Part shown: positions 1-18,675 of the stretch, piece by piece
Numbering within the stretch: the first letter of the stretch is position 1
How the letters are laid out: each line of letters begins with the position of its first letter
The notes under the pieces: generated by a model
Seen by the model: only the letters and a program-made list of their open reading frames with translations
Database searches by the model: none
What the model was told of the DNA's origin: nothing
Assembly (NCBI GenBank): GCA_032249395.1
Contig: JAVVFY010000003.1
Location: 32,001-96,000, forward strand
Origin: Candidatus Aenigmatarchaeota archaeon
Lineage (GTDB): Archaea > Aenigmatarchaeota > Aenigmatarchaeia > CG10238-14 > SpSt-28
Length of the DNA: 64,000 nt
Direction: 5' to 3'
Program-made: the position numbers and the translations under genes

Positions 1-3000
1 ATAGCAAGTATCATTTAACTCGATAAACCAAATTTGTCTTCCTGTTGTATAATTACAATCTGGGTCGAAATAGTAGGTGAATAGACCATCTGAACCTGTA
101 TATATTTCTATAGGATCTCCAAAGTTATTTCTGTCTTTTGTAATGTAAAGATACCCTTTAATTCCAAGATCTGTGGCATAAGTTCCTCCCTTTGACCAAT
201 CTAGTATGTAACCTTGCAATATTGCTGTTTCATATCCAGGTCTGTAAACACTAGAGCCATCTCCGCTTTGAATATAAACATCAGCCCATTCCTTATCTAC
301 AGTAAATGTTTGTTTTGAAGACTCGCTCTTCAATCTATTATCATAAACAAAAAGATTATCAGTAGCGTTGAATTTGAATGTATGAGTTCCTATATCTGAG
401 CAACTAAATGATGTAGTAAATACTAGCGCATCAGAGCCTTCACAGGGCGGAATACACGTCATTGACCCAATATATTCCCAATCACCTGTTCTATTAATCC
501 AGAGGCTAACGTTAACCAAACTTCCTAATTCTCCTGTTCTGTCTTCATCTTCAACATCAACTTTAAACTGCCAGAGATCTCCCCATCCATTTGTAAAGTT
601 TCCAGCAGTAACATAATAGCTATAAGTAGTCAATGTTGGCCTAGAAGCTAAATAAAATGCATTAGTTTGTTGAGTCGTTAAAGAGTCGTTGTAATATTGT
701 TTACTAGCATTTACACTAACATTCCAATATCCATAAATTAACTCGTAGTTAGAGTTCAAAGTTGAGTTCGTTATATTACAAGCATATGTACCATTGTTAA
801 AGTCTACTACACTACCAATAGACCTACATTCTCTGATGGTATCTCCTCTTTGTATGTAAAAGTTCGTTGTAGCACCTCTAACTCCACCACATTCGTCAGT
901 AACATTCGCCACTAATATCAAATAGTCTGCTGGTGTTGGGGACTTTATGTAAATCTTACCATCTTTTGGAGAAATATAATTAACGTTTAATGTATCTGTT
1001 ACGATTGTTATAGTAAATTCTGAGCTGTTTGTTGGTTTGTAGAAGGGATTGCTATCTAATACTCCAGCTTTCCATTTTTGAGGTCCTATTGCAAAAGAAC
1101 AATCTGGATTAAATTGAGTTAGGGATGTGTTTATATATCCTCCTGGTGAAATTGATGATGTTCCACTAATAGTAATATAATTGTAGAAATCTGTCGTTAC
1201 AAAAATTGCTGCTCCGGGAGAACCAATAGCATATTCTCCTTTATCTACATCGTATACTCTGACAGTAAGAGTTTGTATATTGTTTCCTGGTCGATAAACT
1301 GATGTGCTGTTTCCGACAACATGCTCTATTATCACATCGTCTTTTTTGTAGATTAAGGTTCCATTGTTTGTCTGATATACATTTTGTGGAAAGTCTTTAG
1401 TTTGATTTCCAAAAATGTCTTGATATTCGCTAACGTTGAACATAAATGCGTGTGGACCTACAGCAGATGGAGATCCTAAGACAGTAGGAGATGGTAGTCT
1501 CAACATAAAAGTAATAGTTTTATTTATTCCCCTATCGTATGCAGTCATATTAGATGGAAGTTGATACCATTCTCCATTATCAGTTCTATTTATCCAAAGC
1601 TTTACTTCAAGCAAATCATCGTCTTCGTCAGTAATGTTGACTCTAAATACCCAAAGTTCACCCCAGCCTCCATCTCCCACTCTCCCAAGAGAGTCATAAG
1701 AAATTGTATAGAAGTCTGTTGTTAGAATTGGCTTTGTTTCTATCCAGAAACCTTTTTTCCAAATTTCAAAAATCTCTAAAGTAGAATTGCTATTGTAGTA
1801 ACTTTTGCTTGCGTTAAATGTAACATTCCAACCTTTAGCTCTAAAGCCAGAAGTGTTTAAAGAGCAGGTGTAGTAACCATTTCCTAAATATTCTACAGGA
1901 TTACAATAGTTAACTATAGAACCCTGAGAAACGGAGAAATTGGCATTTGCATAAATTCCACCTTCAATCTCACAATCTGAAGTTATTCTTGCTGTTAGAT
2001 TAACGTTTTGACCATCTGGATAATCTCCTCTCAAATACTTTTCTCCTTTAGGTGAAATCACATCTAAAACCAAATCTCCATAGACTTCTACTGTATAGTT
2101 TTGAGTTGGAGTTGTATTTGTATAAGTTTCAAAGTAGCAAGCATCATTCTCTACTTTAGCAAACCATGCTTGTTTTCCTGTTGAGAATTGACAATCTGGA
2201 TTGAAATCTAAACTTGCATATCCACTAGAATTTGTTTGAGTGTAGTAAGGTTTGAAATTGGTTTGATCATAAGTAACATAGAATGTTAAGTTTGTGTTTG
2301 CTAATGGCAATGAATTTCTTGTTAAATCTAAAGCTCTAATAACAAAACTGACAGTGTTTCCTATGTTGCTATCAGATCTATTAACTTTTGCTCCATCTCC
2401 ACTAACAAGAGTTAGAGAAATTGAATTCTTTGTTATAGCTGGGCCAATTGAAATTTCGCTATCTGATGTGTTAACTCTGTTGAAAGTATCGTTTACCACA
2501 AAGTAGAAGCTTGCTATTCCTTGGTCTTCACAGGTGAAATCGTTAACTTCAATATAACAAACTCCTGGAGTACTTATGGTTTTTGAACCCTTGTGAGCCC
2601 AATTGTCATTTGTTTTTACATACAAACTACAAGTTACAGTATCGTTTTCCGGATCTTCAACATAAGCTGAATAATTGAATAAACTTCCCCAACCTGCTGC
2701 ATTTGGTGTAACATTCAAATTGCTGACAATTGGAGGCCTATTCTCTAACCAGAACCAATTAGCAAATGTTGTTGTGTTAGTGCTATAATAAGTTTTTGAA
2801 GCTTGTATTGTTATGTTCCAATATCCTTCTGCTTTTGATGTCGAATCCCAAGTGCAATTGTAGTTTCCATTATCTTCGTTTATTGGAGAACAACTTGAGG
2901 AATAGCTTCCGCTACTCAATGTTAGCACGTTTGAAACTTCACTTATATTTCCTGAATCTCTAACGCTTGAATTCAAATAGCAATCAGAATAAACATTCCA

Positions 3001-6000
3001 ACTTATGTTTATCTTATCTCCAACATTGAACGTTGAACCGTAAGTTGGCAAATTCAAATTAATGTTCAATTGACCTTTTATTATAAAGCTTGAGTCGCTC
3101 GAATTTGCATCAAAATAACATTGATTACTCGCTATACCAACTTTCCAAGATTGATAACCAACATTGTAGGAGCAATCTGGATTGAAATCATATTCTAGAT
3201 AACCAGAAGCATTAGCATATACAAGATGGCCTTCATCATAAATTCCTGTATCTCTTGTGAACCAGAAGTATCCTTTAACATTTTCTTGACTCAAATCTAA
3301 CCAAGCATTCTTGTCAACATCATAAACTCTAACAACAAACTTTCCATAATTATTGCCATATCTCAAAACTTCTGATGGTACTGATATTGAATAGAATGAA
3401 ACTGTATCTTTTGTTAGCGTAACTGTTATCGGAGATGTCTCATTTCTCAAGCCATATGAGTCGCTAACATTTAGCTTTAGCAAAATTGTTGAGTTTATCA
3501 AATATTCGCTACAATTGAATGAAGGATTAAACTCAAAGTAGCATGTTCCCGTACAATCGCTTGAACTCTTTGAATCAACATAAACCCAATTTACTCCATC
3601 GTATGATTTCCACAAGCTTATGTTTACTGGGTCGCTTGGGTCTGCATCTAAAACTAAAGCACTAACCAAAAAGTAACTTCCCCAACCACCAGAGTCTCTG
3701 TTTATTGAATATGAAGTTATAGCTGGCTTTCTTCTAACTTGGAAAGCATTTGATTTGTATGAATAAGTATCGTTGTAATACTGTTTGCTAACGTTCATGC
3801 TTATATCATACCAACCTATTAGACCAGAACTTGGGAATGAACAAGAATAAGTACCATTACCATAATCATTTACTGGAGAACAAGTTGAATGAATTGGTTC
3901 TATTGTAAATATTGTTGATGTTCCACTTACTCCAGAACTACAATCATCAGAAACATTCCCAACAATCAATATTGGATCTCCTTCTGCAATAACATTTCCA
4001 TTCGGTTGTAATATAGATGAAGTTAAGCTTCCGTAGATTACAACAGTGTAGTTTTGCGAGGCATTGCCAAAGTAATAGCTATCTCCATCAAAAGCTGCTC
4101 TCCAATTCTTTACTCCAACGGAATATCTACAGTCTGGGTCGAAGTTTAATGTAGCAAAGCCTGAAGATGTTGTTGTTCCGTATCTTATCCAACCTGAGTC
4201 TGAGCTAACGTTTATGTATGTTGTGTCAGAACCTTTATCTAATGGTAAATTCGTGAAAGCATCATACAATCTTGCTTCCAATATTGTTGTGTTTGTTCCA
4301 ACTCTACTAACCCAAGAATTGTTTCCTTGTGAATATACCCAATAAGTTCTTCTCTTCGTTACATTAAATGTTTGAATACTTGTTTGAGCTACTCCACCAT
4401 AATTATCGCTAGCGTTTATGAACCATTCATAACTTCCAATATCACTTCCTGAAGTGTAAGATTTTTGTAGAGTTACCGTTACATTTGTACAATTGTTACA
4501 AATTGTAGAAGCTGCTAAACTAAATGCTCCATCTGGCAACTTTCTTATCCATAAGCTAACGTTAACAATATCGTCTTCATCAGTAACATTAACTTTGAAT
4601 GTAAATGTTGAACCCCAAGGAGCCTCTGTTGGAGTTACTGATGGTGCTACTAAAACTGGTGGAACTTCATGGAAGAAAGCGTTTTGTTTAACTTTTGAAG
4701 CATTGTTGTACAAATCTCTAGAAGAATACATGAAAACTGAATACCAACCAGGAGGATTGTTTGAAATATTCCAAGTGCAAGTGTAATATCCGCTAACATA
4801 AGATGCAAAACAGTAATCTTCAAATGCTCCATGCTTTACTTTGTAGAAAACATTAGCATCATTTATTGGATTATTGCATTCATCATTAACTAATCCGCTT
4901 ATCGTCACGTTTTGATTTGATAAGTAAGCTTCTCCATTTGGCTGAGAAATCGTGTTGTTTAGCCATCCTTTAATGTTTACAGTTAATGTTAAAGTTGAGT
5001 TTGCATTTTTGTAACAAGCATCGTTTACTATTCCTGCTTTCCAATATTGTGTTCCAACGTTATAAGAACAATCAGGAGTAAAGACAGCCGAAAGATAGCC
5101 ATTATCTCCTGAAGCTTCCCATGCACTTCCATAATTTACTCCATCATAAGTAACCCATATCTTACCGCTAACATATCTATCTACAAATTGTTTATTGTCT
5201 CTATCGTAAACCTTTATTTTCAGAGTTACACCCTCGCTTCTATTAACCCAAGAGTTATTTCCTAAAGAGTTTGAATCGTAAACGAAATCAACATCGTCTT
5301 TATCTAAGTTAAAGCTTATTGGTGCCATATCAGTCGTGTTTCTTGGATCTGTTGCGTTGAACTTAAAGTAATATGTTCCTATATCGCTACAAGTAAAACC
5401 AGAATAATAAAATGTTAACTCTCTTTTGCTTCCACAATTGTAGCACATTTGAGATGAAATGTAATTCCAATTTACCCCATCTTTAGATAGCCATAAACTA
5501 ACGTTAACATCATCAGCATTGGCATCGCTTACATTGACTTTGAAAGTGTAGTTTTCTCCCCAACCCCAATCGTCCTCTGGAAAAACTGTTGCATCTTCTA
5601 AAACTGGAGGTTGCCAAACGTGAATTATTCTAAATACAGAAACATTTGTGAAGCTTGCGTCGTTATAATAAATAACATTAGAAGCGTTTACTCTAACATT
5701 ATACCATCCTTCTTTTGCTTCAGTAGCGTTGAAAGTACATGAATAAGTTCCATTGCCATAGTCTTGAACGTTATCACAATTATAAACATCACCAAAACCA
5801 ACGCTTATTGGTTCTATTGTTACTGTTGCTCCACTTATGTTTCTCAACTTACATTCATCTTGAACAAAGACGCTTATGTTTATGTAGAGTTGATTTTCTC
5901 TGTAGTAAGTAATTCCATTAGGATAAACAACAAATGGAACCAAATCTCCTATAATCGTTACATTGTATGCTTCGCTGGAAGCATCTTTGTAGCAAGCGTC

Positions 6001-8580: not shown

Positions 8581-11500
8581 ATTGGTTAATAGTGGCGAGT
8601 ATTTATAGATTTTTGATTTAACGAACAAGTTTTGAGTTTCATTGAAGAGTTTTCCAGTAGACCAAACATAAGCAATTTTCTCTATGCTAACATTTGAGTA
8701 AGGATTGGTGCTTGAATCTGCATAAGTATCTATGAAAATATTTCTCAAAGAATTAACAAAGTTTGTTGAATCGTTGCTGTCAATTGAATAATTGCTCCAA
8801 ACTTTTGATAAAGCTAATGAATGAGAATAATTTTGCCAGAATATTCTTTTGTTCAATAAATCATCTGCAATTGAAACCTTTGCCTCAGCGATTGTTAGAT
8901 TTTCATCTCCAAAACTATAGTTGATTAAAAATGCAATTTCTTTCATTTTTTCATATCTTGCGTTAATTGGTTTTGTAAACACGAATGGATAAGTTAAGCT
9001 ACAAGAGTTTCCATAACAAGAAATTGAAGTATCGTTAACAAAATAGCTTTCGCTTCTCGTATCCAAAATTCCTTCAGCAACCAAAACTTTCTTTCCTTCT
9101 AATGAACAATTCAAAGTGAAGTTTAAGTAAGAAGAAGAATATACACTCAAAGATGGTAAGCTCCAAGATATCTTTCTTGTTGATGGATTGAAAGTTCCGC
9201 CATTATAAACATTTAAAACGTCGCACTCTTCTGGAATGCTTAAATAAACGCTCCATCCAGAAGCTGTTGTATCGCCAATATTAGTTACTTTAAGGCTGTA
9301 ATTGTAAGCTCTGTTTAGTTGAGAAGATCTTACTTCTGGCCATGGATATTCATCTTGCTGTATTGCCTCTATATCGAATGATAGATGAGACTCTTGATTG
9401 TAAGAAGCTGTTGAAACTGTAAATGGATTTTCTTCTTCAAAGCTTTTTCCATCCCAACTAACATTAAACTTGAAGCTTCCAGTTTTCGAATAAATATTTG
9501 GTGCTTTTACTTGATAAGTTAGAACTGCATACTCATTTACATCAATGTCTCCAAGATTCCAAATTACCAAATTGTTTATCAAATCTACTGAAGAAGAAAG
9601 CAACTGAACGCTGCTCCCATAAACGTTTGTTTTAATGCTTGGATTTGCTGGAGTCCAACCACTTTCCAAAGTCTCAATTATTGTTGCACCAGAAGCTTTA
9701 GCACATCCTTTGTTGTGAACTACTAATCTACTTTCGAAAACTTTATCTGGTGAAACAAATGGAGGAGTTTCTCTTATGACTTCAAGAATTGCTATTGAAT
9801 TGCTTTCTTGAATTTGGAAAGTTGCTGTTTTTGTTTTTTGAGTTATGTGATTGTAATTAACAATTGCTTGAATGTTTGCCAACTCGCTTGTTGAATTGCT
9901 CGAAGTTAAAGTGAACTGAGCATAATACTTTCCGGGAGTTATTGCTTTAACAAGTTGATAAGATGGGGTGAATGTCCAGCCAGTTGGAACAGAAAGAGTT
10001 ACATTGTAATCTATTTCTTCGTTGAATGGATGATATATTTCTACAATGAATGGTTCGCTAGTGGAATTGCACATCCAATTGCTTCCTTTAGCATTAACAG
10101 TAACGTCTTTAATGGTTAATAATTCAACTCTAGTAGAAACGTTTGAATTGTAAACAAATGTTGCAATTATATTGTAATTTCCTTCACTCCAAGCTTGAGT
10201 ATCAATGTTTGAGAAGTTTGCTATGTAACTAGATTTTTGATTCAAAAGTAAAGGTGAGCTAGATGAATAAACAACATTACCATAAGCATCTGTTATGTTT
10301 AAGTAAAGCGTTCCAGAAATTTGTTGGTTGAATGAGTTTGAAAGAATTACAGAAATGTTCAAGTATCTATCTGTTTTTTCCAATCCTTTTACAGAAATGC
10401 CATTAACGTTTGTATCTACATCTTGAATCAAAACAGTTTCATTGTAGTAAGCAGAAAGCTTTAGGCCAGAAATGTTTACAGGATTGTCACCAATGTTTGT
10501 AATTCTTATTTTGCAATAGCCAGTTTCACTTGGCTGAATTTGTTTTTCTAATATTGGAATGAAGAGAGAAGATGGAGAAGTGAAGTAGAGAGAATGAGAA
10601 ACATCTAACCAATAAGTTCCGTTGTAAACCTCTATTCTAATTTTTCCATCTTGCAAGCTTGAGGAATAAGTGGAAATTGAAAGATTAGCTATTCTGTAAC
10701 TTCCAGCTTCACAAACAAAATTGAACTCTTTAGCTTCATTTGAATTGAGCAAATATGGCAATTCTTCTTGAGAAAAAGTTTCACTCATGAACTTATAAGT
10801 AAAAACATTTATCGTTAAGCTATCGTTTTCGGCGTTGCTTGAATTAACAAATATTATTATTTGGTTTGACGAATAGGTTGTTGGGTAAATGTTGAACCAA
10901 ATTGTTTTTAATTCTCCAACGCTAACATTTCCAACATATTTTGTTGTTGAATCTGCTTGCCACCCAGTTGGCAAAGTCAAATTAACATAAACATCATTCG
11001 CTACAGTACCGCTTGGTCCCAAAGTTCCAACTGTAACTCCAAGAGTGAAGTTTTTGTATTGGAAGGCTTCTTTTGGTTGTTTGATTTCTCCTATTTTTAT
11101 TTGAGGTTTACAACCAGAAGTATCTATTGAAATGTTGAAGTAGCTTGTTGTGTATGGCTTGTAATATGGCTCATCTGAAGCTATTTCAGCATACCAATAT
11201 TGATCTCCGCTAGAAAAGCTACAATCTGGAGTAAAGTAGAATTCTGCGTATCCAGAAGAGTTTGTTATGTTTGATCCTATAATTTTATCGTAAAGGCCAT
11301 TATACTTTATTCTAAATGTAACAGTTGCTGCCGGATTCAAATTGTAGGTTTGTGCATCTAAATCGTAAACTCTAACAACAAACTTAGCTGATTGAGCAGG
11401 AGAATATTTAGCAAAGCTATTGTTACCTTCTACATAGCTTATATTAACATCATCTTTTTCTACAGTTACATACAAAACTTGAGTAGTTTCTGCCCCATCC

Positions 11501-14500
11501 ATCTTAAACTGATAATACCAATTTCCTATGTCGTTTGCAGTAAAGTTTCTATACCAATACTTTGTTGAATTTATGCAATTGGAGCATTCATTCGGAGTTT
11601 GATTTATGCAAGTTGGGGCTTCACATTTGAATATTGGCGGCCATGTTTTTCCCATATACAAGCTAACGTTTAGAACGTTTTCTGAATCACCTGAAGAAGC
11701 TTTTACCGAAAAGTTCCAATTTGGATAACCCCAACCTTCAGATAGTGGATAAGCTTGTGGATTTTCCAATTTTTTGATTGGCAACAAGTAGAACAAGCCA
11801 GGATATAAAGCATTAACTGTTGAGTTGGGATAATGATAATCTTTACTTGCATACATTGTTGTGTTGTACCAGCCCATTGGAGTTAAAATATCAGTTTGCC
11901 AATCGCAAGTGTAAGCGTTAGCACCTACTTGATATACTGGCAAACATTCAAAGCTTTGAGTTGATTTATTAGCAAAGAATCTCACGTTTGTTGTTAATGC
12001 ATCTCCACAATCATCAGTAGTTGCTCCTAAAAAGCTTACTTTTTGTTCTTGTGTGAAGTTTGTCGTACCATCTGGCTTTTGGAAGTTTAAGATTATATCT
12101 CCTGTAACCAAGACTGAAAGATTGACAAAATTTTCTGTTGAATTATCAAAGTAACAAGCATGACCACTAACAACTGCCTTCCATTTCTGATATCCAACTT
12201 GATATTTTGGCGAGCATTTTGCTTGGAAGTAGTAATTAGCATAAGCTGATTCGTTTGTTGAATTAGTTGTTCCAGAATCGTAAATGTTTCCATCTAATGT
12301 TACGTAAAATGTTACTGGCAAGTTTGTTATTAGAGTGTTATTCTTATCTCTAACCCTCAAAGCAAGCAAAGTTGTTGTTTTTCCTCTTCTCGTTTCTGTA
12401 CCATTGCCAATAATATCTTCAAAGAATATTGTGTCTTTTGTTATTGTGAATGTTGTTGAAGTTGAGTTTGTTGTTCCTGCATTGTTTGTAGCGTTAAACT
12501 TAACGAAAACTGGAGAACCTATATCGCTACAATCGGCGTCAAACTCAAAAGTAAAGTTTATCCAATCTCCAGTATTTCCAGCACCTGGAGCAGGATAAAC
12601 ATCACAACCTACTAACCTCCAAGGCTCTGAACCAGTTTTGCTAAAGTATGAGCAAACTTGAACATCGTTTTCTGAATTTGTAACTCTAACGCTTACATTA
12701 AAAGTAAAGTTGAATCCCCAGCTTCCAGTGGAAGTTCCTGTTTCTTTTGAAATTACCAGTGGATTTTCCATTTCAATGGTTGCTGGTGGTAAGCCAACTA
12801 AAACATCATTGCAAGACATTACTTCAGTTGAATTTTCAGTTGAATTTGCTCTTATGCAAATTGTGTAAGTTCCTGCAGTATTTGCTGTAATGTTCCATTT
12901 TGCTTCTCTAATTCCGTTCAATTCTATAGTTCCAAGGTAATTGACGTCACTTAAATCACCAGTAGCATTTCTAATTTCTAAAACTCCTGGGCCAGTGTAA
13001 TTTATTACAGCAATAACATTGCTTGCGTTTCCTGGGCCAAAGTTTGTTATTGTTGAGCTTGCATTGAAAGGCTGATTTAAAAATGGATTGTTAGGAGAGA
13101 AGCTTGGTTGACTAACTGTTAAACTTGCTCCACATGCAATGAAAATATCATATGGTTCGTCTAAGAATGTGAATGTTCCGTTTGTTGGAATTGCTTGAAA
13201 TCTGAAAGTACCATTGGTCTGGAAAGTTACATTAATTGTGTAATTGTAAATTTTAGTTCCGTCAAGTCTTCCGAAGGGTGAACCAAAATTTATTCCTCCG
13301 TCCCAATTGATTTTTCTTGCATCATCTATTGTTGCTGTTGTTGGGAGGGATGACCAAGGATATTGAAATATTAAATCTTGCGGGTGCGTTACTGTAATGT
13401 TATATTTATTTTCTGTAATATTTGCATTTATCAATGGTAAGTTGCCTTTATTCCATGTTTGTAAAGATACATTGAAAATACCGCAACCTACAGTTGATGG
13501 AAAACCTGTTTTATAGCTTGTTGAAGTATCATTGTAAAGTCTTTGTGTTTTGATCCATGGACCTTCTACAACTAAAGGTATAACATCATCAGTAAACAAC
13601 CACATTGTTGGAGATTGAGCAGTGTAAGATCTTCCTATAGTTCTAATAAATATATGTTTTCCTCCTGGAGTAATATGAGGTATATTGCTAACATCTAAAT
13701 TGAAAGTAAGAGATACAAAACCATTATTTGATGGAACTGAAAACAATAAACCTCCTTTAAACCAAACGGTCCATCTTACAACCCATCCTTCATCGGGAGA
13801 ACCATATGGATAGCCTGGTGCTGGTGGGACACCAAGATCAGCTCCTGCTGAGCTTCTCCAAACAAAATTTTTCGGAGTTAAACCCGGTGGGAAATGTATT
13901 TCAACATCGTAGATATCGCTAAAAGTACCAGCTCCACCCCCACTTCCAAAAAGTCTAATTTCTACGCCAACATTTGTAGAATTTGCAGGAATTTTAGTGA
14001 TGTTTATTCCATATACAGTAGAACCTCCGGCTCTACCACTTCTTGCAGGGAAGAAAGCTAATTCCGGATCTGTTGTTATAGAGAAAGTTTGCCCAGTTAC
14101 AGGATCATTCCATACAACTTGAGCTATAAATTCCTCTGGAAATGTATCTCCACTACCAGGATATCTAACTAAAAACCATTGGCATTGTGAAGTTGAAATA
14201 TTGTAATTTAGCCATTTGACTTCTCCTTTTACAGGAGTTACGCTAGCTGCTGGTACTTGAAAATCTGATGCTGATAAAGTACGAGTAAAATCTGTTAGGT
14301 TATAAGTTATATTGTAGTCACCATAGTTACATACCGTAATATTGCGCCAAACCGTACCGCTACCAGCTGATTGAGTTACTGCAGTTGCATAAGAAGGTGT
14401 TACTGTTGTTAAAGTTAGTGGAGAGGGTTTAATTCCTAAAGACTCTACTTGGAATATTTTATCATGAACGATTTCTGGTTTGTTTGGAGATTTTATTCTA

Positions 14501-17500
14501 ATTCTTGCTATGTATTTTTTTGAAGCATCCACATCATCAGGAATTTTTACATGCCAAACAGTATCATTAAACGACCAATTACCAATTTGTGATGGTGGCG
14601 TACTCTTTACAAATACGCTTCTGTCAGCACCTTCAAGAATAAACCAATTCTGTTTATTTCCTTGTTCATCTAAAATTTCTAAAGATACATTGGCAATTAA
14701 GTCGTTTGTAGTGTTGTAATTTCCTATAGGCGCTACTACTAGCGCCCAATAACCACCAATAACTTTATCTTTTGCGTGGGTAGATACAACTATATCTCTT
14801 GCAAGATTGATATCATTACAATCTATAACTCTAATGTTCTGCTTATCTGTATCTTTTTGTGGTGCTGTTGGATGTAGAGGATGGAATATACGAAGCGTAT
14901 ATTCGCCGAGCTCTACATCATTAGTTATGTTTAAGAAATATGTTCCCCAAAAACATTTATCATTTACTCCTCCTCCTAATTGACAACCATCAGCATTTCC
15001 TAATTCAGTTCCTGAAATTGGAACATCATTAGCTATAAATCCGAGAGAAGGCATATCAGAGAATACTACATCATTTTTTCTTTTAACTTGTAACTTAAGA
15101 TTGCCTGCTGATGTTGGATCATCATCTGCATTATCAATTAGAGTAAAGTTTATTGTATAATTGTACCCTCTGCATAACGTTAAAGGATCGGCACGAAAAC
15201 TAGTTTGATTAAAGTAAAAATCCCAACCAAATAAGTAAAATCTTAAATCTTCTGCAAGTATAGTCCAGCTTCTGCTTTCCTTAAATGTTTCTCCATTGTT
15301 GTAATGCATTTCTACTGGACCAAGAAGGTAAATTCTTGGAAATAGTGGGGGTAAGTCAAAGGAGTAATTCAACAAAATTCTTTCTCCCTTTCTAATATTC
15401 GGTAAATTCCAAACTATTAAAATCTCTTCTGGATTCTTGATTATCACCCCATCACTTTTAATATTCAAAAATTCAGTAGGAACGCGCTCAATTACAGTTA
15501 AGTTGTAGGCATCTATCTTTGCTATTATATTCAAAGAAACAGTAGTTCTTGCTTCAACCCTTATTTTCGTAGGAAATTCATCTAAAAATGGCTCTTGCCT
15601 CAATATATCAAAGGGATAAAATTCTTTAACTTCGAAGTTTGTGGAGTATTCATTGCTTACGTTCAAACCTTCTTCAACACGTACATATACAGAGTAATTG
15701 CCTACTTCACTTACAGTATAATTAGCTACATAAGTCCCGTCAAATCTATTTAAAATTTCTGTAGGATTTATTATCGTTTTTTTACCAGAAGGATTAGTTA
15801 CTTCTATAAAAACTATAGCATTTGTAACAGCCTTACCTTCGGCATTTAAAGCGCCAACAACTATTCTAACAGTTTCCCCAGGAGAGAAAGTCCCTGCACC
15901 AACATATACAGTTCTTTTAAAGCCATTATTAGAAATTTCCAGTGCCTTTAAAGTATTTACATTTACTAAACCGACAGCAAAGCTAATTTCTTCTTCAACC
16001 ACTTCCTCTCCAGGATTCGGACTTACATAACTCAATTTAACTTTAAGCTTGTACAAACCTGGCCTAAATTCTCTTTCTGCATCTAACTCAACAACAAACT
16101 TTCCAGGACCAACTTGAGTATAATTAACTTCAGTTATATTTCCATCTGGATCTACAACAAAAGCTTGCAAAGTAGCATTTGGAAATATTTCGCCAGTATC
16201 TTCATAAATAGCTGAAATCTCAAACCTTATTTTTTCTCCAAGCTCATAATTGAACTTCTCTTGCTTAACTTTTGGTTTTACTTTTATGTGCTTCAAAACA
16301 TTGAAATCAAGAGTTTTGCTTGCATTTCCAAATTCACTTTCAGCAAAAATTTCTGCTGAATATTTACCATAAGCTTTTGGCAAAATTTCAAAAGTGAAAT
16401 TAAAGCTACCATTAACAAATTGCTCATCCTCAAAAACGACTTTACCTTTAACATCTTTAACTATAAGCTTAACTCTAGAATTAACCAAATTTCCATTGTA
16501 GTTAACATTTCCGTAAATTGAAACGACTTTCCAATCGCCTTTTCCTTTTGTGATATTTTTAACTGAATAAAATGCTTCGACTGATGGAACAAAACTTATT
16601 TTAGGTTGCGAATAGTTAGATACAACAAAATAAAAGCTTGTTTCATTTTTCAAGCCTAATGCTTCTATTATCAAATAATAAATTCCATCTTCGCTAAAGT
16701 TAGCAATTAGAGAAGAATTAAAGCTACCGTTAACAATTTCTATTTCTTTTGAAAGCAAGAGAGAAGAATTAAATTGCAAGCTTAAGTTTGCGGTAGCATT
16801 AACTTTTTCTCCATCAACAACAAGTTCTCCAAAAATGTTAATTGTTTCGTTTGAAGTGTAATTTGATTTATCAGTTAAAATTGTCAAGTATGTCTGATTA
16901 GTTTGAGTAATATTTTCACTTACGTTTTCAGAAGGAATTGTAGTTGTTGTTACAGAAGTTGTAGTAGTTATCTCTTCTTTTCTCTCAATTGTTATTTCAG
17001 CTTCACTTGGATTCAAATAATCTTTTTCACTTCCTTTGAAAACTGCTTTTACTTTTGATGCATTGATAAGATTAAAAGAAAATGTTGAAATTCCAGAATC
17101 ATCTGTAAAATTGCTACCGACAAAATTCCCATCAACATAAAATTCTATTTCTTTATTTGGAACAAAAGAACCATTATCGAGCAAAAGCTTAGCAGCTATT
17201 AAACCATTCTCAACTTTCAAATCTATTGAAGTGTTTGCAAAAACTTCAACTTTAATGCTTTCTTCAACAACATTAGAAACTCCAATAAATCTTCCCGTAA
17301 TATTACTCCAGTTTGTTGCTAAAAGAATTGCAGAAGCTAGAGCAATGAAAAGTAAAGAAGTAATTATTTGGGTTTGTCCCTTCAAACTTTTTTTCGATTT
17401 TAAATTTAGTAATGCAAAAAAGAAAAGAATTGCAAAAGAAATTGCAAATGGTAAGAAAATTAAGAAAGGTAAAGTTAAGTATGGCAAAAATTCTTCAATA

Positions 17501-17532
17501 AGACTTTGACTTTTTAGTTTAAACTTACTCAT
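1..17532 (-). CDS. Giant cell-surface/adhesin-like protein, >=5,844 aa, 3'-truncated by the window edge
   Basis: ATG at 17532 overlaps the end of the upstream gene and gives MSKFKLKSQSLIEEFLPYLTLPFLIF...KGQTQIITSLLFIALASAILL. The same frame reads as protein at every point I translated (e.g. 5640-5461 ...PPVLEDATVFPEDDWGWGENYTFKVNVSDANADDVNVSLW; 60-1 DCNYTTGRQIWFIELNDTCY). The ORF track lists no terminated ORF in this frame, consistent with no stop before base 1. Alternative TTG start at 17385 (MKGQTQII). Confidence 0.9.
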   Translation of the reverse strand, partial: MSKFKLKSQSLIEEFLPYLTLPFLIFLPFAISFAILFFFALLNLKSKKSLKGQTQIITSLLFIALASAILLATNWSNITGRFIGVSNVVEESIKVEVFANTSIDLKVENGLIAAKLLLDNGSFVPNKEIEFYVDGNFVGSNFTDDSGISTFSFNLINASKVKAVFKGSEKDYLNPSEAEITIERKEEITTTTSVTTTTIPSENVSENITQTNQTYLTILTDKSNYTSNETINIFGELVVDGEKVNATANLSLQFNSSLLLSKEIEIVNGSFNSSLIANFSEDGIYYLIIEALGLKNETSFYFVVSNYSQPKISFVPSVEAFYSVKNITKGKGDWKVVSIYGNVNYNGNLVNSRVKLIVKDVKGKVVFEDEQFVNGSFNFTFEILPKAYGKYSAEIFAESEFGNASKTLDFNVLKHIKVKPKVKQEKFNYELGEKIRFEISAIYEDTGEIFPNATLQAFVVDPDGNITEVNYTQVGPGKFVVELDAEREFRPGLYKLKVKLSYVSPNPGEEVVEEEISFAVGLVNVNTLKALEISNNGFKRTVYVGAGTFSPGETVRIVVGALNAEGKAVTNAIVFIEVTNPSGKKTIINPTEILNRFDGTYVANYTVSEVGNYSVYVRVEEGLNVSNEYSTNFEVKEFYPFDILRQEPFLDEFPTKIRVEARTTVSLNIIAKIDAYNLTVIERVPTEFLNIKSDGVIIKNPEEILIVWNLPNIRKGERILLNYSFDLPPLFPRIYLLGPVEMHYNNGETFKESRSWTILAEDLRFYLFGWDFYFNQTSFRADPLTLCRGYNYTINFTLIDNADDDPTSAGNLKLQVKRKNDVVFSDMPSLGFIANDVPISGTELGNADGCQLGGGVNDKCFWGTYFLNITNDVELGEYTLRIFHPLHPTAPQKDTDKQNIRVIDCNDINLARDIVVSTHAKDKVIGGYWALVVAPIGNYNTTNDLIANVSLEILDEQGNKQNWFILEGADRSVFVKSTPPSQIGNWSFNDTVWHVKIPDDVDASKKYIARIRIKSPNKPEIVHDKIFQVESLGIKPSPLTLTTVTPSYATAVTQSAGSGTVWRNITVCNYGDYNITYNLTDFTRTLSASDFQVPAASVTPVKGEVKWLNYNISTSQCQWFLVRYPGSGDTFPEEFIAQVVWNDPVTGQTFSITTDPELAFFPARSGRAGGSTVYGINITKIPANSTNVGVEIRLFGSGGGAGTFSDIYDVEIHFPPGLTPKNFVWRSSAGADLGVPPAPGYPYGSPDEGWVVRWTVWFKGGLLFSVPSNNGFVSLTFNLDVSNIPHITPGGKHIFIRTIGRSYTAQSPTMWLFTDDVIPLVVEGPWIKTQRLYNDTSTSYKTGFPSTVGCGIFNVSLQTWNKGNLPLINANITENKYNITVTHPQDLIFQYPWSSLPTTATIDDARKINWDGGINFGSPFGRLDGTKIYNYTINVTFQTNGTFRFQAIPTNGTFTFLDEPYDIFIACGASLTVSQPSFSPNNPFLNQPFNASSTITNFGPGNASNVIAVINYTGPGVLEIRNATGDLSDVNYLGTIELNGIREAKWNITANTAGTYTICIRANSTENSTEVMSCNDVLVGLPPATIEMENPLVISKETGTSTGSWGFNFTFNVSVRVTNSENDVQVCSYFSKTGSEPWRLVGCDVYPAPGAGNTGDWINFTFEFDADCSDIGSPVFVKFNATNNAGTTNSTSTTFTITKDTIFFEDIIGNGTETRRGKTTTLLALRVRDKNNTLITNLPVTFYVTLDGNIYDSGTTNSTNESAYANYYFQAKCSPKYQVGYQKWKAVVSGHACYFDNSTENFVNLSVLVTGDIILNFQKPDGTTNFTQEQKVSFLGATTDDCGDALTTNVRFFANKSTQSFECLPVYQVGANAYTCDWQTDILTPMGWYNTTMYASKDYHYPNSTVNALYPGLFYLLPIKKLENPQAYPLSEGWGYPNWNFSVKASSGDSENVLNVSLYMGKTWPPIFKCEAPTCINQTPNECSNCINSTKYWYRNFTANDIGNWYYQFKMDGAETTQVLYVTVEKDDVNISYVEGNNSFAKYSPAQSAKFVVRVYDLDAQTYNLNPAATVTFRIKYNGLYDKIIGSNITNSSGYAEFYFTPDCSFSSGDQYWYAEIASDEPYYKPYTTSYFNISIDTSGCKPQIKIGEIKQPKEAFQYKNFTLGVTVGTLGPSGTVANDVYVNLTLPTGWQADSTTKYVGNVSVGELKTIWFNIYPTTYSSNQIIIFVNSSNAENDSLTINVFTYKFMSETFSQEELPYLLNSNEAKEFNFVCEAGSYRIANLSISTYSSSLQDGKIRIEVYNGTYWLDVSHSLYFTSPSSLFIPILEKQIQPSETGYCKIRITNIGDNPVNISGLKLSAYYNETVLIQDVDTNVNGISVKGLEKTDRYLNISVILSNSFNQQISGTLYLNITDAYGNVVYSSSSPLLLNQKSSYIANFSNIDTQAWSEGNYNIIATFVYNSNVSTRVELLTIKDVTVNAKGSNWMCNSTSEPFIVEIYHPFNEEIDYNVTLSVPTGWTFTPSYQLVKAITPGKYYAQFTLTSSNSTSELANIQAIVNYNHITQKTKTATFQIQESNSIAILEVIRETPPFVSPDKVFESRLVVHNKGCAKASGATIIETLESGWTPANPSIKTNVYGSSVQLLSSSVDLINNLVIWNLGDIDVNEYAVLTYQVKAPNIYSKTGSFKFNVSWDGKSFEEENPFTVSTASYNQESHLSFDIEAIQQDEYPWPEVRSSQLNRAYNYSLKVTNIGDTTASGWSVYLSIPEECDVLNVYNGGTFNPSTRKISWSLPSLSVYSSSYLNFTLNCSLEGKKVLVAEGILDTRSESYFVNDTSISCYGNSCSLTYPFVFTKPINARYEKMKEIAFLINYSFGDENLTIAEAKVSIADDLLNKRIFWQNYSHSLALSKVWSNYSIDSNDSTNFVNSLRNIFIDTYADSSTNPYSNVSIEKIAYVWSTGKLFNETQNLFVKSKIYKYSPLLTNATLYIDDQVRNVGGWGENYKFGVYVRDRFGRDVIVYAWHRMGASEYSLIGSQVCYNCLQWTQLNFSFKYDGSAIGAWSFKFNATNADGSSEILGYAYTIEKDDISVFGIQPILNATVNRSMPFEFTMFVFDIDNQTYPYYLQLGQVDEGKARIFISKYGSNETFDISPSLSANSTGYVVRTMQNTSDSWCKVSDYYLGQNYWKGGVFGASTYKDNVTPIIPFWLIGDLSNSYMLYPNGSRNYTRGQVVEFDGIIKDDCGLVKTDSASFGVEYIISHGSTVYTIVAPLTYTTWTIPQDAPLGWYNVTMIAFAEGSEAGKYWNGTYFKENAFFVASNIKLDNPQVSPYPKGSWQINPFNFSVYVTSEDGEPVYTYLWLKRENSNWQLENSSVCVNCNNYQFFTQKSFYCSDIGSWYAKFNATSPTTFKNETQVIAFNITKTPISIDYSSGNNSVVNRSDSVIGNTVNLTVRIKNLVFGNYTTEISTDEVYGYVTKDDVNWEQEIVYSNETHYFINFNPSCSYSVGLRKWKVNVSSACYESNSSQEFYVIIVGSLANSIISPTGDRNYTAGEKIYLIGEVYDDCGNPISDASIRFKLTSGSNEYYCPSSGYITNTSNTYVCEFDTTGKSGGWYNVSMESSKQYYLNASSFKQNAFFLIKPVELINPKVEYPNDGSWGEIHNFSVIVNHYASVNVCLLESTSSDGPWSVTDCRFIENPSYTLVNFTRDYTCSDYQQAAIRYFMFNASEPDIPQTYSNTSAISHTLRKDDISLIYVLGNESYVNRNGNNSTKFMIYVLDRDKNSPAFSQIGVQYYPRVWFNIFNGTAFITDGSNSTNSSGYVEYNFNPDCRYDAGRQNWVAYVQADACYKDASSEAYNVTIIGDLVPFVVYPNGITYYRENQLYINISVFVQDECKLRNISGATVTIEPISVGFGDVYNCDNVQDYGNGTYSCTFNATEAKEGWYNVRVNASNVIYYNDASFTNVSVFRIIHVWQPPVLEDATVFPEDDWGWGENYTFKVNVSDANADDVNVSLWLSKDGVNWNYISSQMCYNCGSKRELTFYYSGFTCSDIGTYYFKFNATDPRNTTDMAPISFNLDKDDVDFVYDSNSLGNNSWVNRSEGVTLKIKVYDRDNKQFVDRYVSGKIWVTYDGVNYGSAWEASGDNGYLSAVFTPDCSYNVGTQYWKAGIVNDACYKNANSTLTLTVNIKGWLNNTISQPNGEAYLSNQNVTISGLVNDECNNPINDANVFYKVKHGAFEDYCFASYVSGYYTCTWNISNNPPGWYSVFMYSSRDLYNNASKVKQNAFFHEVPPVLVAPSVTPTEAPWGSTFTFKVNVTDEDDIVNVSLWIRKLPDGAFSLAASTICNNCTNVTVTLQKSYTSGSDIGSYEWFINASDNYGGVAQTSIQTFNVTKRRTYWVYSQGNNSWVSRVGTNTTILEARLYDAFTNLPLDKGSDTTYINVSSDSGWIRYGTTTSSGFATLNFDPDCRYSVGVKNWRAAFDGDSYYFGNASQNYTVVIYGSLTSSILQPNGNVIAEGDPILIVGNVSDDCSSGVSGTSTIFTIEPIHSTCSPVNDYGNGTYSCSFPSSGLIGWYDISMNVSKQYYNDTYSYKSNAFQVRRKPAITSYSINRDSGGWGSYFLVSALVLDADPSDPVNISLWKSYDGVNWVYVDSKSSSDCTGTCYFEFNPSFNCSEYLINSTILLKLNVSDSYGLRNETSPITVTLTKDTVSFYSISVPSEVLRYGNNYGKFVVRVYDVDKNAWLDLSQENVKGYFWFTRDTGIYDEGHLVYANASGYLEYDFNPDCSYNVGYQSWKVGIASNQCYFDANSSDSSFIIKGQLNINLNLPTYGSTFNVGDKINISWNVYSDCYLNSSVRDSGNISEVSNVLTLSSGSYSSSCSPINEDNGNYNCTWDSTSKAEGYWNITIQASKTYYSTNTTTFANWFWLENRPPIVSNLNVTPNAAGWGSLFNYSAYVEDPENDTVTCSLYVKTNDNWAHKGSKTISTPGVCYIEVNDFTCEDQGIASFYFVVNDTFNRVNTSDSEISIGPAITKNSISLTLVSGDGAKVNRSDSNIGNTVSFVIRALDLTRNSLPLANTNLTFYVTYDQTNFKPYYTQTNSSGYASLDFNPDCQFSTGKQAWFAKVENDACYFETYTNTTPTQNYTVEVYGDLVLDVISPKGEKYLRGDYPDGQNVNLTARITSDCEIEGGIYANANFSVSQGSIVNYCNPVEYLGNGYYTCSLNTSGFRAKGWNVTFNASKSYYNSNSTLEIFEIWKKGFWIETKPILTTDFYTISYDSLGRVGDGGWGELWVFRVNITDEDDDLLEVKLWINRTDNGEWYQLPSNMTAYDRGINKTITFMLRLPSPTVLGSPSAVGPHAFMFNVSEYQDIFGNQTKDFPQNVYQTNNGTLIYKKDDVIIEHVVGNSTSVYRPGNNIQTLTVRVYDVDKGEYAIGSPGAAIFVTTDFYNYITISGTSSISPGGYINTSLTQFNPDCSFAIGPQKWKAGVLDSNPFYKPTNSSEFTITIVTDTLNVNYISPKDGKIYIKSPTPADYLILVANVTDECGGVRGATTNFYIQRGDTIRECRSIGSVVDFNNGTYACNITNSTLNSNYELIYGYWNVSVNASKQYYNDSLTTQQTNAFYLASRPTLTTYSYYVTAGNFTNGWGDLWQFKVDVEDEDRTGELGSLVNVSLWINRTGDWEYIGSMTCIPPCEGSDALVFTTSFSCSDIGTHTFKFNATDNLFVYDNRLKSESSKQTFTVDKEWADVYIQSGDGSSVYRPGYETAILQGYILDWSKGGTYATDLGIKGYLYITKDRNNFGDPIEIYTGSDGLFTYYFDPDCNYTTGRQIWFIELNDTCY
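11110..12790 (-). repeat. Two further copies (one complete, one partial) of the same protein repeat
   Basis: GSWGF at ~12721 and EGWGY at ~11733, with KDD, VRVYD and FTPDC motifs like the main array. Confidence 0.75.
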
Positions 17533-18118
17533 AAGCTACTCTCACCTTTATCTCACTTTCTCCAAGTTTCGTTGATAAATCGCTTTTAACAGAAAACTCT
17601 AACTCGCAATAAGAGTTTACTTCGATTACATTGCAAACTTTTTCTAAGGCGTCTGTCGAAAATCCTTTCGGCAAATCGACAGATACTCGAACGTTTGTGG
17701 CATTAGCACTTCCTTCATTGCTAACAACAACTCTTAACAAGAAACTCTCTCCTCTTGTTATTCTGCTTTTATCGGTGCTTAATCTCAAAGAGATTTTTGG
17801 TTTTGCGATAATTTCTGTTGTTTGAGAAATTTGCGTAGCAGATGTCGAAACGTTTTCACTTGCTCCATTTTCTTCTGTGCTATTAGATTCATTCATTTGA
17901 GTAAGTTCAGAAGAAGTTGTATTCGACGAGTCGACAGATTGTTGTGAAGTTGAGTTTTCAGAAACCAAATTTGTCGAAGCTGACTGTTCACTCGAATTTT
18001 CATTTGTTGTCAAATTTAGTGAGCTGTTCATAGCTTCTTGAGCAATCGACAAGTAGAAAAAGAAAGAAAAGGCTAAGAAAATTGCCAATAAAGCTAGAAA
18101 TTGGGCTTTTCCCTTCAT
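17525..18118 (-). CDS. Secreted/membrane-anchored protein with S/T/N-rich linker and C-terminal Ig-like (CARDB/DUF11-like) domain
   Basis: MKGKAQ plus hydrophobic stretch, a low-complexity linker with many N-x-S/T sequons, and a beta-rich C-terminus (VVSNEGSANATNVRVSVDLPKGF). Its stop overlaps the giant ORF start, suggesting an operon. Confidence 0.75.
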   Translation of the reverse strand: MKGKAQFLALLAIFLAFSFFFYLSIAQEAMNSSLNLTTNENSSEQSASTNLVSENSTSQQSVDSSNTTSSELTQMNESNSTEENGASENVSTSATQISQTTEIIAKPKISLRLSTDKSRITRGESFLLRVVVSNEGSANATNVRVSVDLPKGFSTDALEKVCNVIEVNSYCELEFSVKSDLSTKLGESEIKVRVAYE

Positions 18119-18273
18119 TTTTAACTCCTATTGCTTAACACTAATGATAAGCAGAGTTGTTTGTCGACCCATATATAATTTTTTTAACAACCTGTCGAGA
18201 GTGAAAATCGACAGTTCGACACCTCGACAAAAAAGAAGAATAGCTTTTATTTTTAGAATAAAAGAAAGAATAT
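18119..18273. promoter_or_regulatory. Divergent promoter region between the surface-protein operon and the wHTH gene
   Basis: TATA-like ATATATAATT (18171-18180) and minus-strand SD AGGAG (18125-18129) for the leftward operon. TTTTATT at ~18245 lies ~25 nt upstream of ATG 18274. Five TCGAC motifs fall in this interval. Confidence 0.5.
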
Positions 18274-18675
18274 ATGCTTAAAGAGATTTTTGGTTTGAAA
18301 AAAGAAAACAAAGATGAAAAAATTGATGAGATGATTAAGTTAATTGATTCTCAGCTCTCTATGATTTCTATGGAAATTGAGAAGTTGAAGAATTTGGGTT
18401 CTAAAATTGAGAATATTGAGAAAAAAATAGCAATTTTAGAAGAGCTTATTAAAGAACAAGGAGTCGAAATAAAGCCAAAACCGGTTAGTGAGAAAACAAA
18501 AGAAGCAATAAAGACTTTGTTGAAGAGATATGGAAGCTTAAATGCCTGGCAGGTTGCCAAATTATTAAACATGTCTAGAACAAGATGCGCAGAATATCTT
18601 AAGCAAATGGAAGAAGAGGGGATTTTAGTCTCTCAATGGAAGAGTCGAAAAAAGTACTATTCGATTCGACAGTAA
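18274..18675 (+). CDS. Coiled-coil plus C-terminal winged-helix DNA-binding protein
   Basis: Heptad-rich N-half. C-terminal LNAWQVAKLLNMSRTRCAEYLKQMEEEGILVSQWKSRKKYY is a typical wHTH with wing. Confidence 0.8.
   Translation: MLKEIFGLKKENKDEKIDEMIKLIDSQLSMISMEIEKLKNLGSKIENIEKKIAILEELIKEQGVEIKPKPVSEKTKEAIKTLLKRYGSLNAWQVAKLLNMSRTRCAEYLKQMEEEGILVSQWKSRKKYYSIRQ

Follow-up and report, generated by a model that had tools for sequence, protein, structure and literature searches.

A giant SPEARE-type surface protein ending in a HerA-clade ATPase, predicted from a hot-spring Aenigmatarchaeota genome

For DPANN archaea, physical contact with a host cell is a necessity, and their mode of attachment and uptake is an open question. 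Here we examine a stretch of 64,000 nucleotides from a Candidatus Aenigmatarchaeota genome (hereafter the window, C3:32001-96000 in contig coordinates), in which a single minus-strand reading frame starting at an ATG at position 17532 stays open through base 1 and encodes the N-terminal half of a giant predicted surface protein.

The closest described systems are the SPEARE proteins, a name given by Hamm et al. (2019) to proteins of Nanohaloarchaeota of up to 8,553 amino acids (aa), described there as mostly extracytoplasmic, with a transmembrane (TM) helix near the C-terminus and a conserved cytoplasmic part (PMC6642349). The same account lists at least one laminin-G domain as a feature of the class, assigns serine-protease and toxin-like regions to the type protein, reports the detection of peptides from the Nha-C SPEARE, suggests that this protein is cut close to its TM helix, and notes similar cytoplasmic sequences in Woese-, Aenigm- and Micrarchaeota and in Altiarchaeales (Hamm et al. 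2019, PMC6642349). Printed examples include NAR1_1133 of Ca. Nanohaloarchaeum antarcticus (5,998 aa) and the 8,553-aa protein of Ca. Nanopetramus SG9 (PMC6642349, PMC10266531), as well as SVXNc_0300 of Ca. Nanohalococcus occultus (9,409 aa), called the largest protein of cultivated archaea (Reva et al. 2023, PMC10266531). The re-annotation by Reva et al. (2023) gives a signal peptide, about 75 immunoglobulin (Ig)-like domains, a TM helix, a VirB4/TraG-like ATPase and a coiled coil, and proposes for the nanohaloarchaeal giants a "straw" resembling a type IV secretion system (T4SS; PMC10266531). It also disputes the protease and nuclease calls (PMC10266531), such that, on that account, the laminin-G/protease/toxin feature may not define the class. 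Two further archaeal systems bear on the comparison. CedD of Saccharolobus, made up of a TM segment, an N-terminal domain and an ATPase resembling HerA, VirB4 and CedB, is indispensable for DNA import by the Ced system, which acts between two archaeal cells in contact (PMC11868833), and halomucin of Haloquadratum walsbyi is described as a secreted protective protein of 9,159 aa (PMC1544339, PMC4378361). In a literature search for giants of more than 10,000 aa or SPEARE-type proteins in Aenigmatarchaeota, which covered the listed titles and openings of abstracts outside subscription journals and supplements, only Reva et al. (2023) appeared to treat giant surface proteins.

The domain order and C-terminal homology of the protein described here place it in the published SPEARE class, whose function is itself putative. 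Our best overall explanation, held with moderate confidence, is that the gene encodes a real SPEARE-type surface protein that would serve as a host tether, carry a ring-forming ATPase and couple cell contact to transport.

An uninterrupted gene of 11,434 codons

The initial annotation of the window described a frame that stays open from ATG 17532 to base 1, encodes at least 5,844 aa and is absent from the open reading frame (ORF) track. An ORF listing with open ends returns this frame (window 1..17532, minus strand, 5,844 codons, ATG start, open at its 3' end), and its translation contains no stop; a lister that omits frames leaving the window end misses it, accounting for its absence from the track. 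The size holds as a lower bound and covers only about half of the protein. Read past the window, the frame reaches a stop at C3:15228-15230, with the remaining 5,590 codons and the stop lying to the left of the window (C3:15228-32000, equivalent to L004:3228-20000). The whole gene thus spans C3:15228..49532 on the minus strand and encodes 11,434 aa, with an unmodified mass of 1.27 MDa and an isoelectric point of 4.8. The assembly comprises 752,806 bases in 25 contigs and is rated 89.5% complete; the giant gene makes up 4.56% of this 0.75-Mb sequence, in keeping with its earlier description as a large investment for a reduced genome.

This frame is one real gene. From ORF base composition, stops are expected at 7.6% of codons, yet none occurs in 11,434 codons (chance about 1e-395), which excludes a chance frame, and the other five frames of the same 34.3 kb contain 660-1,088 stops, with a longest open run of 133 codons. 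In-frame stops and gene-splitting frameshifts had been raised as possible objections; the former are missing from all 11,434 codons, and the latter were sought in public sequencing runs. At least 20 public runs, drawn from 16 studies, matched the first 10 kb; almost all carry a hot-spring metagenome label, and three of the runs may be the source sample. Four runs (X4, X5, X19 and X20) were aligned to window positions 1-18200 in 30 bins. X4, a DNA run from a different study, covers all 30 bins, with 24 of 25 pieces at least 99% alike, one substitution and no insertion or deletion. In X5, which represents a related strain, changes are frame-keeping where covered (3+2+1 nt left out and a 33-nt skip). 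Three of its 30 bins are without cover, and at a 169-nt skip (13218-13388) the intervening sequence is not known and the frame is not established; its coverage hole at about 13.4-15.8 kb may reflect strain divergence and is no evidence of absence. Runs X5-X18 contain only 0.26-0.42 of the sampled words, and those among them other than X5 give no firm indication of habitat. Contigs from RNA libraries, 90-99% alike, cover 30 (X19) and 25 (X20) of the 30 bins, a hint of expression given that DNA can occur in RNA libraries. Both also differ from the window at one place:

16575..16908, minus strand: strain-variable stretch, where the X19 and X20 contigs skip 332 nt and carry 8 other letters

The net difference of 324 nt, or 108 codons in frame, corresponds to about one beta-sandwich domain in the N-terminal region and is a domain-scale length polymorphism between strains.

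These data also bear on whether the gene might be an artefact, produced by misassembled repeats or by a contig that is collapsed or chimeric, or else a pseudogene in decay. Repeats are prone to misassembly, the protein carries 21 tandem copies of a superrepeat, and the genome is a metagenome bin of 25 contigs. The copies, however, are just 27-35% identical, too diverged to collapse, the same sequence recurs over all 30 bins of X4 in another study, four relatives carry the same array in open frames of 10,144-14,236 aa, and 11,434 codons pass without a stop. We therefore regard an artefact as extremely improbable.

The source was taken to be a small-genome DPANN archaeon, and this assignment is supported by archaeal markers in the window, by the occurrence of the DNA in hot-spring metagenomes and by the ATPase end of the gene, which is 99% identical to a Candidatus Aenigmatarchaeota record.

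A membrane-anchored ATPase and its partner gene

Following the frame to its C-terminus, as the initial annotation had proposed, leads outside the window to a single TM helix and a cytoplasmic HerA-type ATPase. The only C-terminal TM helix is a hydrophobic helix at aa ~11042-11066, which appears as a long helix in the structural model, and Walker A (GGTGSGKT) begins at aa 11120. Among Pfam families, DUF87 (the HerA central domain) matches at 4.6e-12 (46.9 bits against a cut-off of 23.2) and HerA_C at 2.1e-8, with a weak match to TrwB_AAD_bind (0.007). The best NCBIfam match is CedD (NF053655; 1.8e-9), followed by HerA (3.7e-8; HerA_Thermprot 32.2 bits against a cut-off of 800, helicase_HerA 20 against 970). 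A model of the 405-aa module, built from 28 aligned homologues, was predicted with high scores (predicted local distance difference test, pLDDT, 90.6; predicted template modelling score, pTM, 0.86) and consists of the long TM helix, a RecA-like core and C-terminal helices at module residues 336-361, 367-381 and 385-403 that make up a coiled-coil tail of ~70 aa. Foldseek placed Sulfolobus HerA 4d2i first (1.5e-12), then SIR2-HerA, TcpA, FtsK and EssC, and VIA-align against 48,161 chains gave the following scores:

HerA 4d2i: Z 26.1, root-mean-square deviation (rmsd) 2.8 over 250 residues
DndH-C: Z 24.4
VirB4 4ag5 (C-terminal domain): Z 23.5
TrwB: Z 18.6
FtsK: Z 17.4
TcpA: Z 17.2
EccC/EssC: Z ~16-17

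By sequence and predicted fold, the module belongs to the HerA clade of the FtsK-HerA superfamily. Walker A residues G91, T93, G94, G96 and K97 and Walker B residues D220 and E221 are invariant in 29 sequences, and RExRKxG-type motifs are also present; given the invariant Walker residues, the module looks catalytically competent. Orthology to HerA itself was rejected, as scores fall far under the equivalog cut-offs, a TM helix precedes the ATPase and there is no NurA neighbour. Orthology to VirB4 seems unlikely; in the two fold searches, as in the family scans, VirB4 comes behind HerA. The TM-ATPase module is single-copy in its genome. Two further DUF87-type ATPase genes occur there, at C2:44364-44969 (minus strand, within an 873-aa frame) and C7:596-1192 (minus strand, within a 493-aa frame); the 493-aa protein scores 106 bits for DUF87 and may be an ordinary HerA.

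A search with the 405 aa of the module returned 1,384 cluster representatives at E<=1e-3, 373 of them at E<=1e-30, and among the best 150 the module is C-terminal in proteins of up to 7,665 aa. In proteins of 3,074-9,783 aa there are 128 module matches, named, where a name is given, as DUF87 or DUF853 proteins; they come from Aenigmat-, Micr-, Nano-, Woese-, Pace- and Parvarchaeota, Nanohaloarchaea and one member of Hadarchaeales, and the Pfam domains of their ectodomains differ greatly from one protein to another (NEW3, laminin-G-type, beta-helix, VCBS, subtilase and others). Species genomes contain at least 595 module loci, the best being the 99%-identical Candidatus Aenigmatarchaeota record. 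Identity of the module is 59% to a 7,378-aa Nanohaloarchaea protein (P0170) and 61% and 54% to two Nanohalarchaeota loci (L041 and L083). In its own phylum it was found in 159 of 371 genomes, 49 of 98 high-quality genomes and 76 of 170 genera.

Among the matches listed, 14 module-carrying open frames exceed 10,000 aa:

Largest frames: 14,526; 14,236; 13,519; 13,462; 13,434; 13,314 aa
Further frames: 13,242 (ends at a contig end); 11,607; 11,435 (the frame of the gene described here); 11,428 aa
Further frames: 11,262; 11,249; 10,206; 10,147 aa

The gene is therefore large and holds no size record among Aenigmatarchaeota frames. Tails of at least 100 aa past the ATPase core are present in 100 of 238 family proteins. 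In several of the longest (P0083, P0095, P0102, P0105 and others), a conserved stretch following a charged linker ends in K-N-D-(F/I)-A-x-W; this is a sub-family tail domain that the giant gene described here does not carry.

The next gene downstream starts at a GTG that overlaps the stop of the giant gene and encodes a highly charged coiled-coil protein of 536 aa; after it comes a gene for a 253-aa ParA/MinD ATPase (C3:12856-13617, minus strand; L004:856-1617). By tblastn, the coiled-coil partner is present in 77 of 80 related loci, including those of Micrarchaeota, Nanohalarchaeota and other DPANN archaea. In the best-scoring 45 loci it lies on the same strand shortly past the ATPase end, except in L046 and L080, where it is ~1.8 and 4.5 kb further away. 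The ParA/MinD gene recurs in 15 of the 80 loci, mostly those of close relatives (on the opposite strand in L083), and the next ORF, of 128 aa, in three. When 23 partner proteins are aligned, SHOCT-like motifs (I-S-x-x-x-Y-x-E-x-K) stand out close to either end, and the core sequence E-S-I-G-E-L-R-S is conserved. The partner matches no Pfam family above cut-off, and its PDB relatives are only generic coiled coils. At E<=1e-5, a hidden Markov model (HMM) of the partner found no fused ATPase-partner protein among 240 family proteins (one spurious match at E 1.6 with the bias filter off). The gene order suggests that the partner may bind the ATPase module.

It is at this end of the protein that the straw proposed by Reva et al. 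(2023) can be weighed, namely that the giant would form part of a T4SS-like system injecting effectors into the host, with the ATPase as its VirB4/TraG-type motor. The domain order is the same as that published for SVXNc_0300, the ATPase model aligns with VirB4, TrwB, TcpA and EccC/EssC at the scores given above, and the TrwB_AAD_bind match, weak as it is, points the same way. HerA nevertheless outranks VirB4 throughout, the downstream genes encode a coiled-coil protein and then a ParA/MinD ATPase with no VirB4/TraG ATPase, the genome, 89.5% complete, gives no match to the VirB4 N-terminal domain (PF03135), the operon shows neither a VirB6-like channel nor a pilin, and a chain of Ig-like domains offers no obvious lumen. 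We consider an injecting straw unlikely for this protein.

The ectodomain, its N-terminus and the upstream genes

The ectodomain of ~10,970 aa consists of beta-sandwich domains throughout its recognised regions. A Pfam scan of the giant protein, run in four pieces covering its full length (E<=0.01), found, in the ectodomain, beta-sandwich families only: MG2, Filamin, YtkA, NPCBM_assoc/NEW3, Big_1, Big_3_3 and Big_7. Three parts were mapped within the window:

15628..15900, minus strand: MG2/filamin/YtkA-like beta-sandwich domain, aa 545-635 (Pfam MG2 8.1e-10, Filamin 3.6e-8)
11029..12963, minus strand: first block of a ~325-aa three-domain superrepeat, aa 1524-2168 (phmmer and HMM mapping)
1..9045, minus strand: window part of the main superrepeat array, aa 2830-5844 (phmmer/HMM mapping)

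The main array runs on beyond the window to aa ~9258, and the whole protein contains 21 near-full copies of the ~325-aa superrepeat. Eighteen copies align to the first at the low identity given above, with invariant residues G10, W14, P47, Y106 and W167. An AlphaFold2 model of the unit at aa 3825-4150, based on this 18-copy alignment, is all-beta with three sandwiches (mean pLDDT 85.9, pTM 0.65). Its Foldseek matches, at E 1e-6 to 1e-8, are macroglobulin-domain strings of alpha-2-macroglobulin and complement, the adhesin extender repeat 6xi3, Ig strings and an archaeal surface-layer (S-layer) protein, 7ptp, and the middle domain aligns by VIA-align with FN3, Ig and PKD domains (Z ~10, rmsd 2.1-2.7 over ~95-100 residues). 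At ~108 aa per domain, ~10,970 aa gives ~100 domains; an Ig/FN3 domain is ~4 nm long, and the extended ectodomain would thus measure ~0.4 um. The earlier description of an Ig-like stalk is borne out by the beta-sandwich bulk of the protein, seen in the AlphaFold2 model and its Foldseek and VIA-align matches, and falls short in one respect: a TM helix, a conserved HerA-type ATPase and a co-operonic partner make the protein a membrane-coupled machine and more than a passive stalk.

The array is shared with relatives. The full frames of four of them, in the 10,144-14,236 aa range noted above, contain 17, 19, 20 and 22 near-full superrepeat copies vs 21 here. One relative (G152) is collinear with the giant protein at 56% identity over 11,410 aa, and a second (G157) aligns at 45% identity over 7,659 aa, with ATPase modules that are 79% and 86% identical, respectively, to the one described here. 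Collinear relatives with the same superrepeat imply that the array is old and orthologous, and the lower identity of the ectodomains (45-56%) than of the ATPase modules (79-86%) that the outside evolves faster than the motor. Superrepeat copy number changes by whole units.

The composition of the protein matches the initial annotation, which had called it very rich in N-x-S/T sequons, Trp/Tyr and paired Cys. The window part (5,844 aa) contains 239 sequons (4.09 per 100 aa), with 2.1% W, 6.3% Y and 1.56% C, vs 0.59 sequons per 100 aa, 1.0% W, 4.0% Y and 0.86% C in 413 other crude genome ORFs of at least 200 aa. Over the whole ectodomain there are 486 sequons (4.43 per 100 aa), a 2.7-fold enrichment over the 177 +/- 11 found in 200 shuffles (maximum 205). 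All 486 lie before the TM helix and none in the 368-aa cytoplasmic tail; the last 434 aa of the protein contain one sequon and no Cys. Other large ORFs of the genome with signal-like N-termini are likewise sequon-rich. This pattern fits N-glycosylation of surface proteins. Cysteines occupy fixed columns of the superrepeat, and their pairing was followed in 96 near-full units from five genomes, which are related to one another, so that p-values overstate the signal. At HMM positions 92 and 105, Cys is found at both in 79 of 96 units, at neither in 17 and never singly; positions 198 and 201 co-occur (26 both, 62 neither); and Cys at position 5 is never seen without Cys at position 68. Such co-variation is the pattern of disulfide pairs, and we predict disulfides at these columns.

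A second large surface protein (1,950 aa; C3:4383-10235, minus strand; L005:4383-10235) is encoded ~5 kb past the operon of the giant gene. Its N-terminus is signal-like, NEW3 domains occur three times and MG2 domains twice, sequon density is 4.1 per 100 aa, and an ATPase module is lacking.

These surface features also bring into view a mainly protective or structural role, in which the protein would form a layer of the envelope, in the manner of halomucin or an S-layer accessory, with the ATPase helping to assemble, anchor or turn over the protein. The extreme sequon density favours such a coat, as do the recognition of no lectin or adhesin tip domain, the presence in the genome of several other sequon-rich large surface proteins (1,950, 1,458 and 1,417 aa), the S-layer protein 7ptp among the Foldseek matches, and the existence of halomucin, whose published description is that of a secreted protective protein. 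Unlike S-layer or mucin-like proteins, however, this one has a covalent motor ATPase and a partner conserved across DPANN phyla, its ectodomain evolves faster than its ATPase, as expected of a partner-recognition surface, and the family is concentrated in host-dependent DPANN lineages. We rate a mainly structural role as improbable.

At the N-terminus, two hydrophobic segments precede the first recognised domains:

17407..17463, minus strand: first hydrophobic segment, aa 24-42 (hydropathy scan)
17317..17373, minus strand: second hydrophobic segment, aa 54-72, a conserved signal/anchor followed by an N-I-T-G-R-F stretch (hydropathy scan and N-termini of relatives)

The predicted N-termini of two relatives (G157 and G134) start at the equivalent of aa ~50, lack the first segment and have one hydrophobic segment, corresponding to the second here, followed by N-I-T-G-R-F. 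A GGTGA stands 9 nt ahead of ATG 17532, the ATG itself overlaps the preceding gene's stop, and an alternative TTG is present at codon 49. The start codon, the reality of the first hydrophobic segment and cleavage of the anchor could each go either way.

Two genes precede the giant gene in the window:

17525..18118, minus strand: 197-aa co-oriented gene with a signal/TM segment, an S/T/N-rich linker and a NEW3/CARDB-like domain (Pfam NPCBM_assoc 8.4e-8)
18274..18675, plus strand: 133-aa divergent gene with a coiled coil and a winged helix (Pfam HTH_24 4.1e-6, TrmB 5.6e-5)

The stop of the 197-aa gene overlaps the giant gene's ATG (ATGAGTAA), and homologues stand directly upstream of the giant gene in four of eight relatives' 5' regions. 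Against the 80 related loci, it gave one weak match of no significance; their 6-kb flanks stop short of the giant genes' 5' ends. In two relatives (G006 and G060), the upstream NEW3 gene opens with a winged-helix domain before the TM segment, and in two others (G077 and G334; L094 and L097), a winged helix-turn-helix and TM start lies within the giant open frame itself. Coordinates of the NEW3 genes that start with a winged helix are:

L099:1821-2771 and L100:1401-2321, plus strand: upstream NEW3 genes with a winged-helix start in relatives

Such starts would put a DNA-binding domain on the cytoplasmic side within a surface-protein operon, a puzzling arrangement. The 133-aa winged-helix gene is a candidate regulator of the NEW3 and giant-gene operon; similar small (~130-aa) divergent HTH_24/TrmB-like genes occur in two relatives (L099:1241-1648 and L100:809-1198, both minus strand).

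Elsewhere in the window, a 1,429-aa ORF (37146-41435, plus strand) joins Rpb2 domains 4-7 to Rpb1 domains 1-5 as an in-frame RpoB'-RpoA' fusion, with RpoB'' (496 aa) and RpoA'' (378 aa) in separate flanking ORFs. The elongation factor 2 gene (1,226 aa; 44251-47931, plus strand) contains an intein with a LAGLIDADG endonuclease (Intein_splicing 1.9e-28, LAGLIDADG_3 7.7e-19), and a free-standing LAGLIDADG ORF of 295 aa lies at 21689-22576 on the minus strand.

Proposed function and comparison with known systems

In the reading that we prefer, the extended ectodomain would act as a glycosylated, partly disulfide-clamped tether of a few hundred nm that reaches and binds a host cell. The tether or adhesin interpretation draws on analogy, because such domain strings do so in bacterial adhesins and the same has been proposed for SPEARE; a role of this kind in contact with another cell seems on balance probable, at or slightly below our confidence in the explanation as a whole, and attachment to the host by the giant protein is plausible. 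On the cytoplasmic side, the related ATPases (HerA, FtsK, TrwB, VirB4, EssC, CedB/CedD) act as rings moving DNA or proteins. Like these relatives, the ATPase may form a ring on the inside of the membrane. Such a ring would hold several giant chains together and, with its coiled-coil partner, could link contact with a host to the ATP-driven passage of a macromolecule (DNA or protein) through the symbiont membrane. Ring formation and transport are suggested by the ring-forming relatives together with the position of the TM helix directly before the ATPase, as in coupling proteins and CedB/CedD; the closest analogues of the proposed ring would be the membrane-anchored HerA-clade proteins CedB and CedD, DNA importers in Sulfolobales. 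We treat a transport role as possible, though doubtful, and import of host DNA in particular as improbable.

A still more specific idea, which we likewise consider unlikely, is that the conserved core (the TM helix, the HerA-clade ring ATPase with its coiled-coil tail, and the separate partner) is a new contact-dependent import machine. The fast-evolving glycoprotein chain would capture a particular host cell at a distance of hundreds of nm, after which six TM-ATPase modules arranged as a ring would draw host DNA or some other polymer into a symbiont that is poor in nucleotides. If true, this would be a one-polypeptide fusion of adhesin and translocase, of which we know of no described bacterial counterpart.

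Several observations weigh against our preferred reading. The RNA-library contigs are no proof of transcription. The ATPase is no CedD orthologue, a candidate rejected at 36.9 bits against a cut-off of 600, the lack of PF03135 matches counts here as well, and no polytopic channel protein of the CedA or VirB6 kind is seen in the operon. Presence of the module in only half of the high-quality genomes of the phylum (49 of 98) indicates that it is not essential to a DPANN lifestyle. There is no clear signal-peptidase site, and the N-terminus may stay in the membrane; an uncleaved anchor would place both ends of the protein in the membrane, giving a loop instead of a free-ended tether. The whole-protein Pfam scan contains no lectin, laminin-G, peptidase or toxin family at its E<=0.01 threshold, nor any other catalytic domain within the ectodomain. 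PDB sequence searches returned zero matches for aa 74-1510 and aa 2170-2831 and just two chance-level matches for aa 9260-11041, and an Atlas search with aa 641-1510 gave scores of at most 0.88, with weak CARDB/DUF11/NEW3 leads. The relatedness of the 96 units behind the cysteine pairs belongs on the same side.

At 4.6% of a 0.75-Mb genome, the gene must pay its way. Beyond what has been published, versions of more than 10,000 aa turn out to be common in hot-spring and other Aenigmatarchaeota, reaching 14,526 aa vs the printed 9,409 aa. The invariant part of the family is the TM-ATPase module with a partner of no known family, not the adhesin, which draws attention to the cytoplasmic side. In the ectodomain, a three-domain superrepeat with paired cysteines forms a stable array, orthologous between genera and varying by whole units and single domains between strains.

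Set beside halomucin, formerly the "largest archaeal protein" by its published description, the giant protein is likewise a giant secreted or surface archaeal glycoprotein-like chain; the halomucin abstracts, on which this comparison by description rests, give no TM-ATPase module. HerA of Sulfolobus solfataricus (4d2i) provides the best structural match, with DUF87 above cut-off, Walker A/B and RExRKxG-type motifs in common, whereas the module described here has no HAS-barrel N-terminal domain and carries a TM helix and an 11,000-aa ectodomain instead, with no NurA neighbour. With CedB and CedD it shares a TM segment followed by a cytoplasmic HerA-clade ATPase, a likeness that for CedD extends to layout only; it differs in that no CedA/CedE-like polytopic partner is seen in its operon and in that its outside part is a giant adhesin-like chain vs a short N-terminal domain.

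The comparison with SPEARE proteins is the closest. The named records NAR1_1133 and SVXNc_0300 were compared by their published descriptions, with homology assessed through P0170, L041 and L083. At 11,434 aa, the protein exceeds the largest size printed in those accounts (9,409 aa), it has no detected laminin-G, serine-protease, toxin-like or WD40 domain, and its ectodomain is centred on the ~325-aa three-domain superrepeat. Its downstream genes encode a coiled-coil protein and a ParA/MinD ATPase vs a VirB4/TraG ATPase for the nanohaloarchaeal giant, and its habitat is a hot spring vs hypersaline water. What the two have in common is the same order of parts, from an N-terminal signal through a long tandem Ig-like ectodomain and a single TM helix to a cytoplasmic P-loop ATPase and a coiled-coil end, in DPANN archaea with genomes of ~1 Mb or smaller, and an ATPase module sharing 54-61% identity with entries from Nanohalarchaeota and Nanohaloarchaea.

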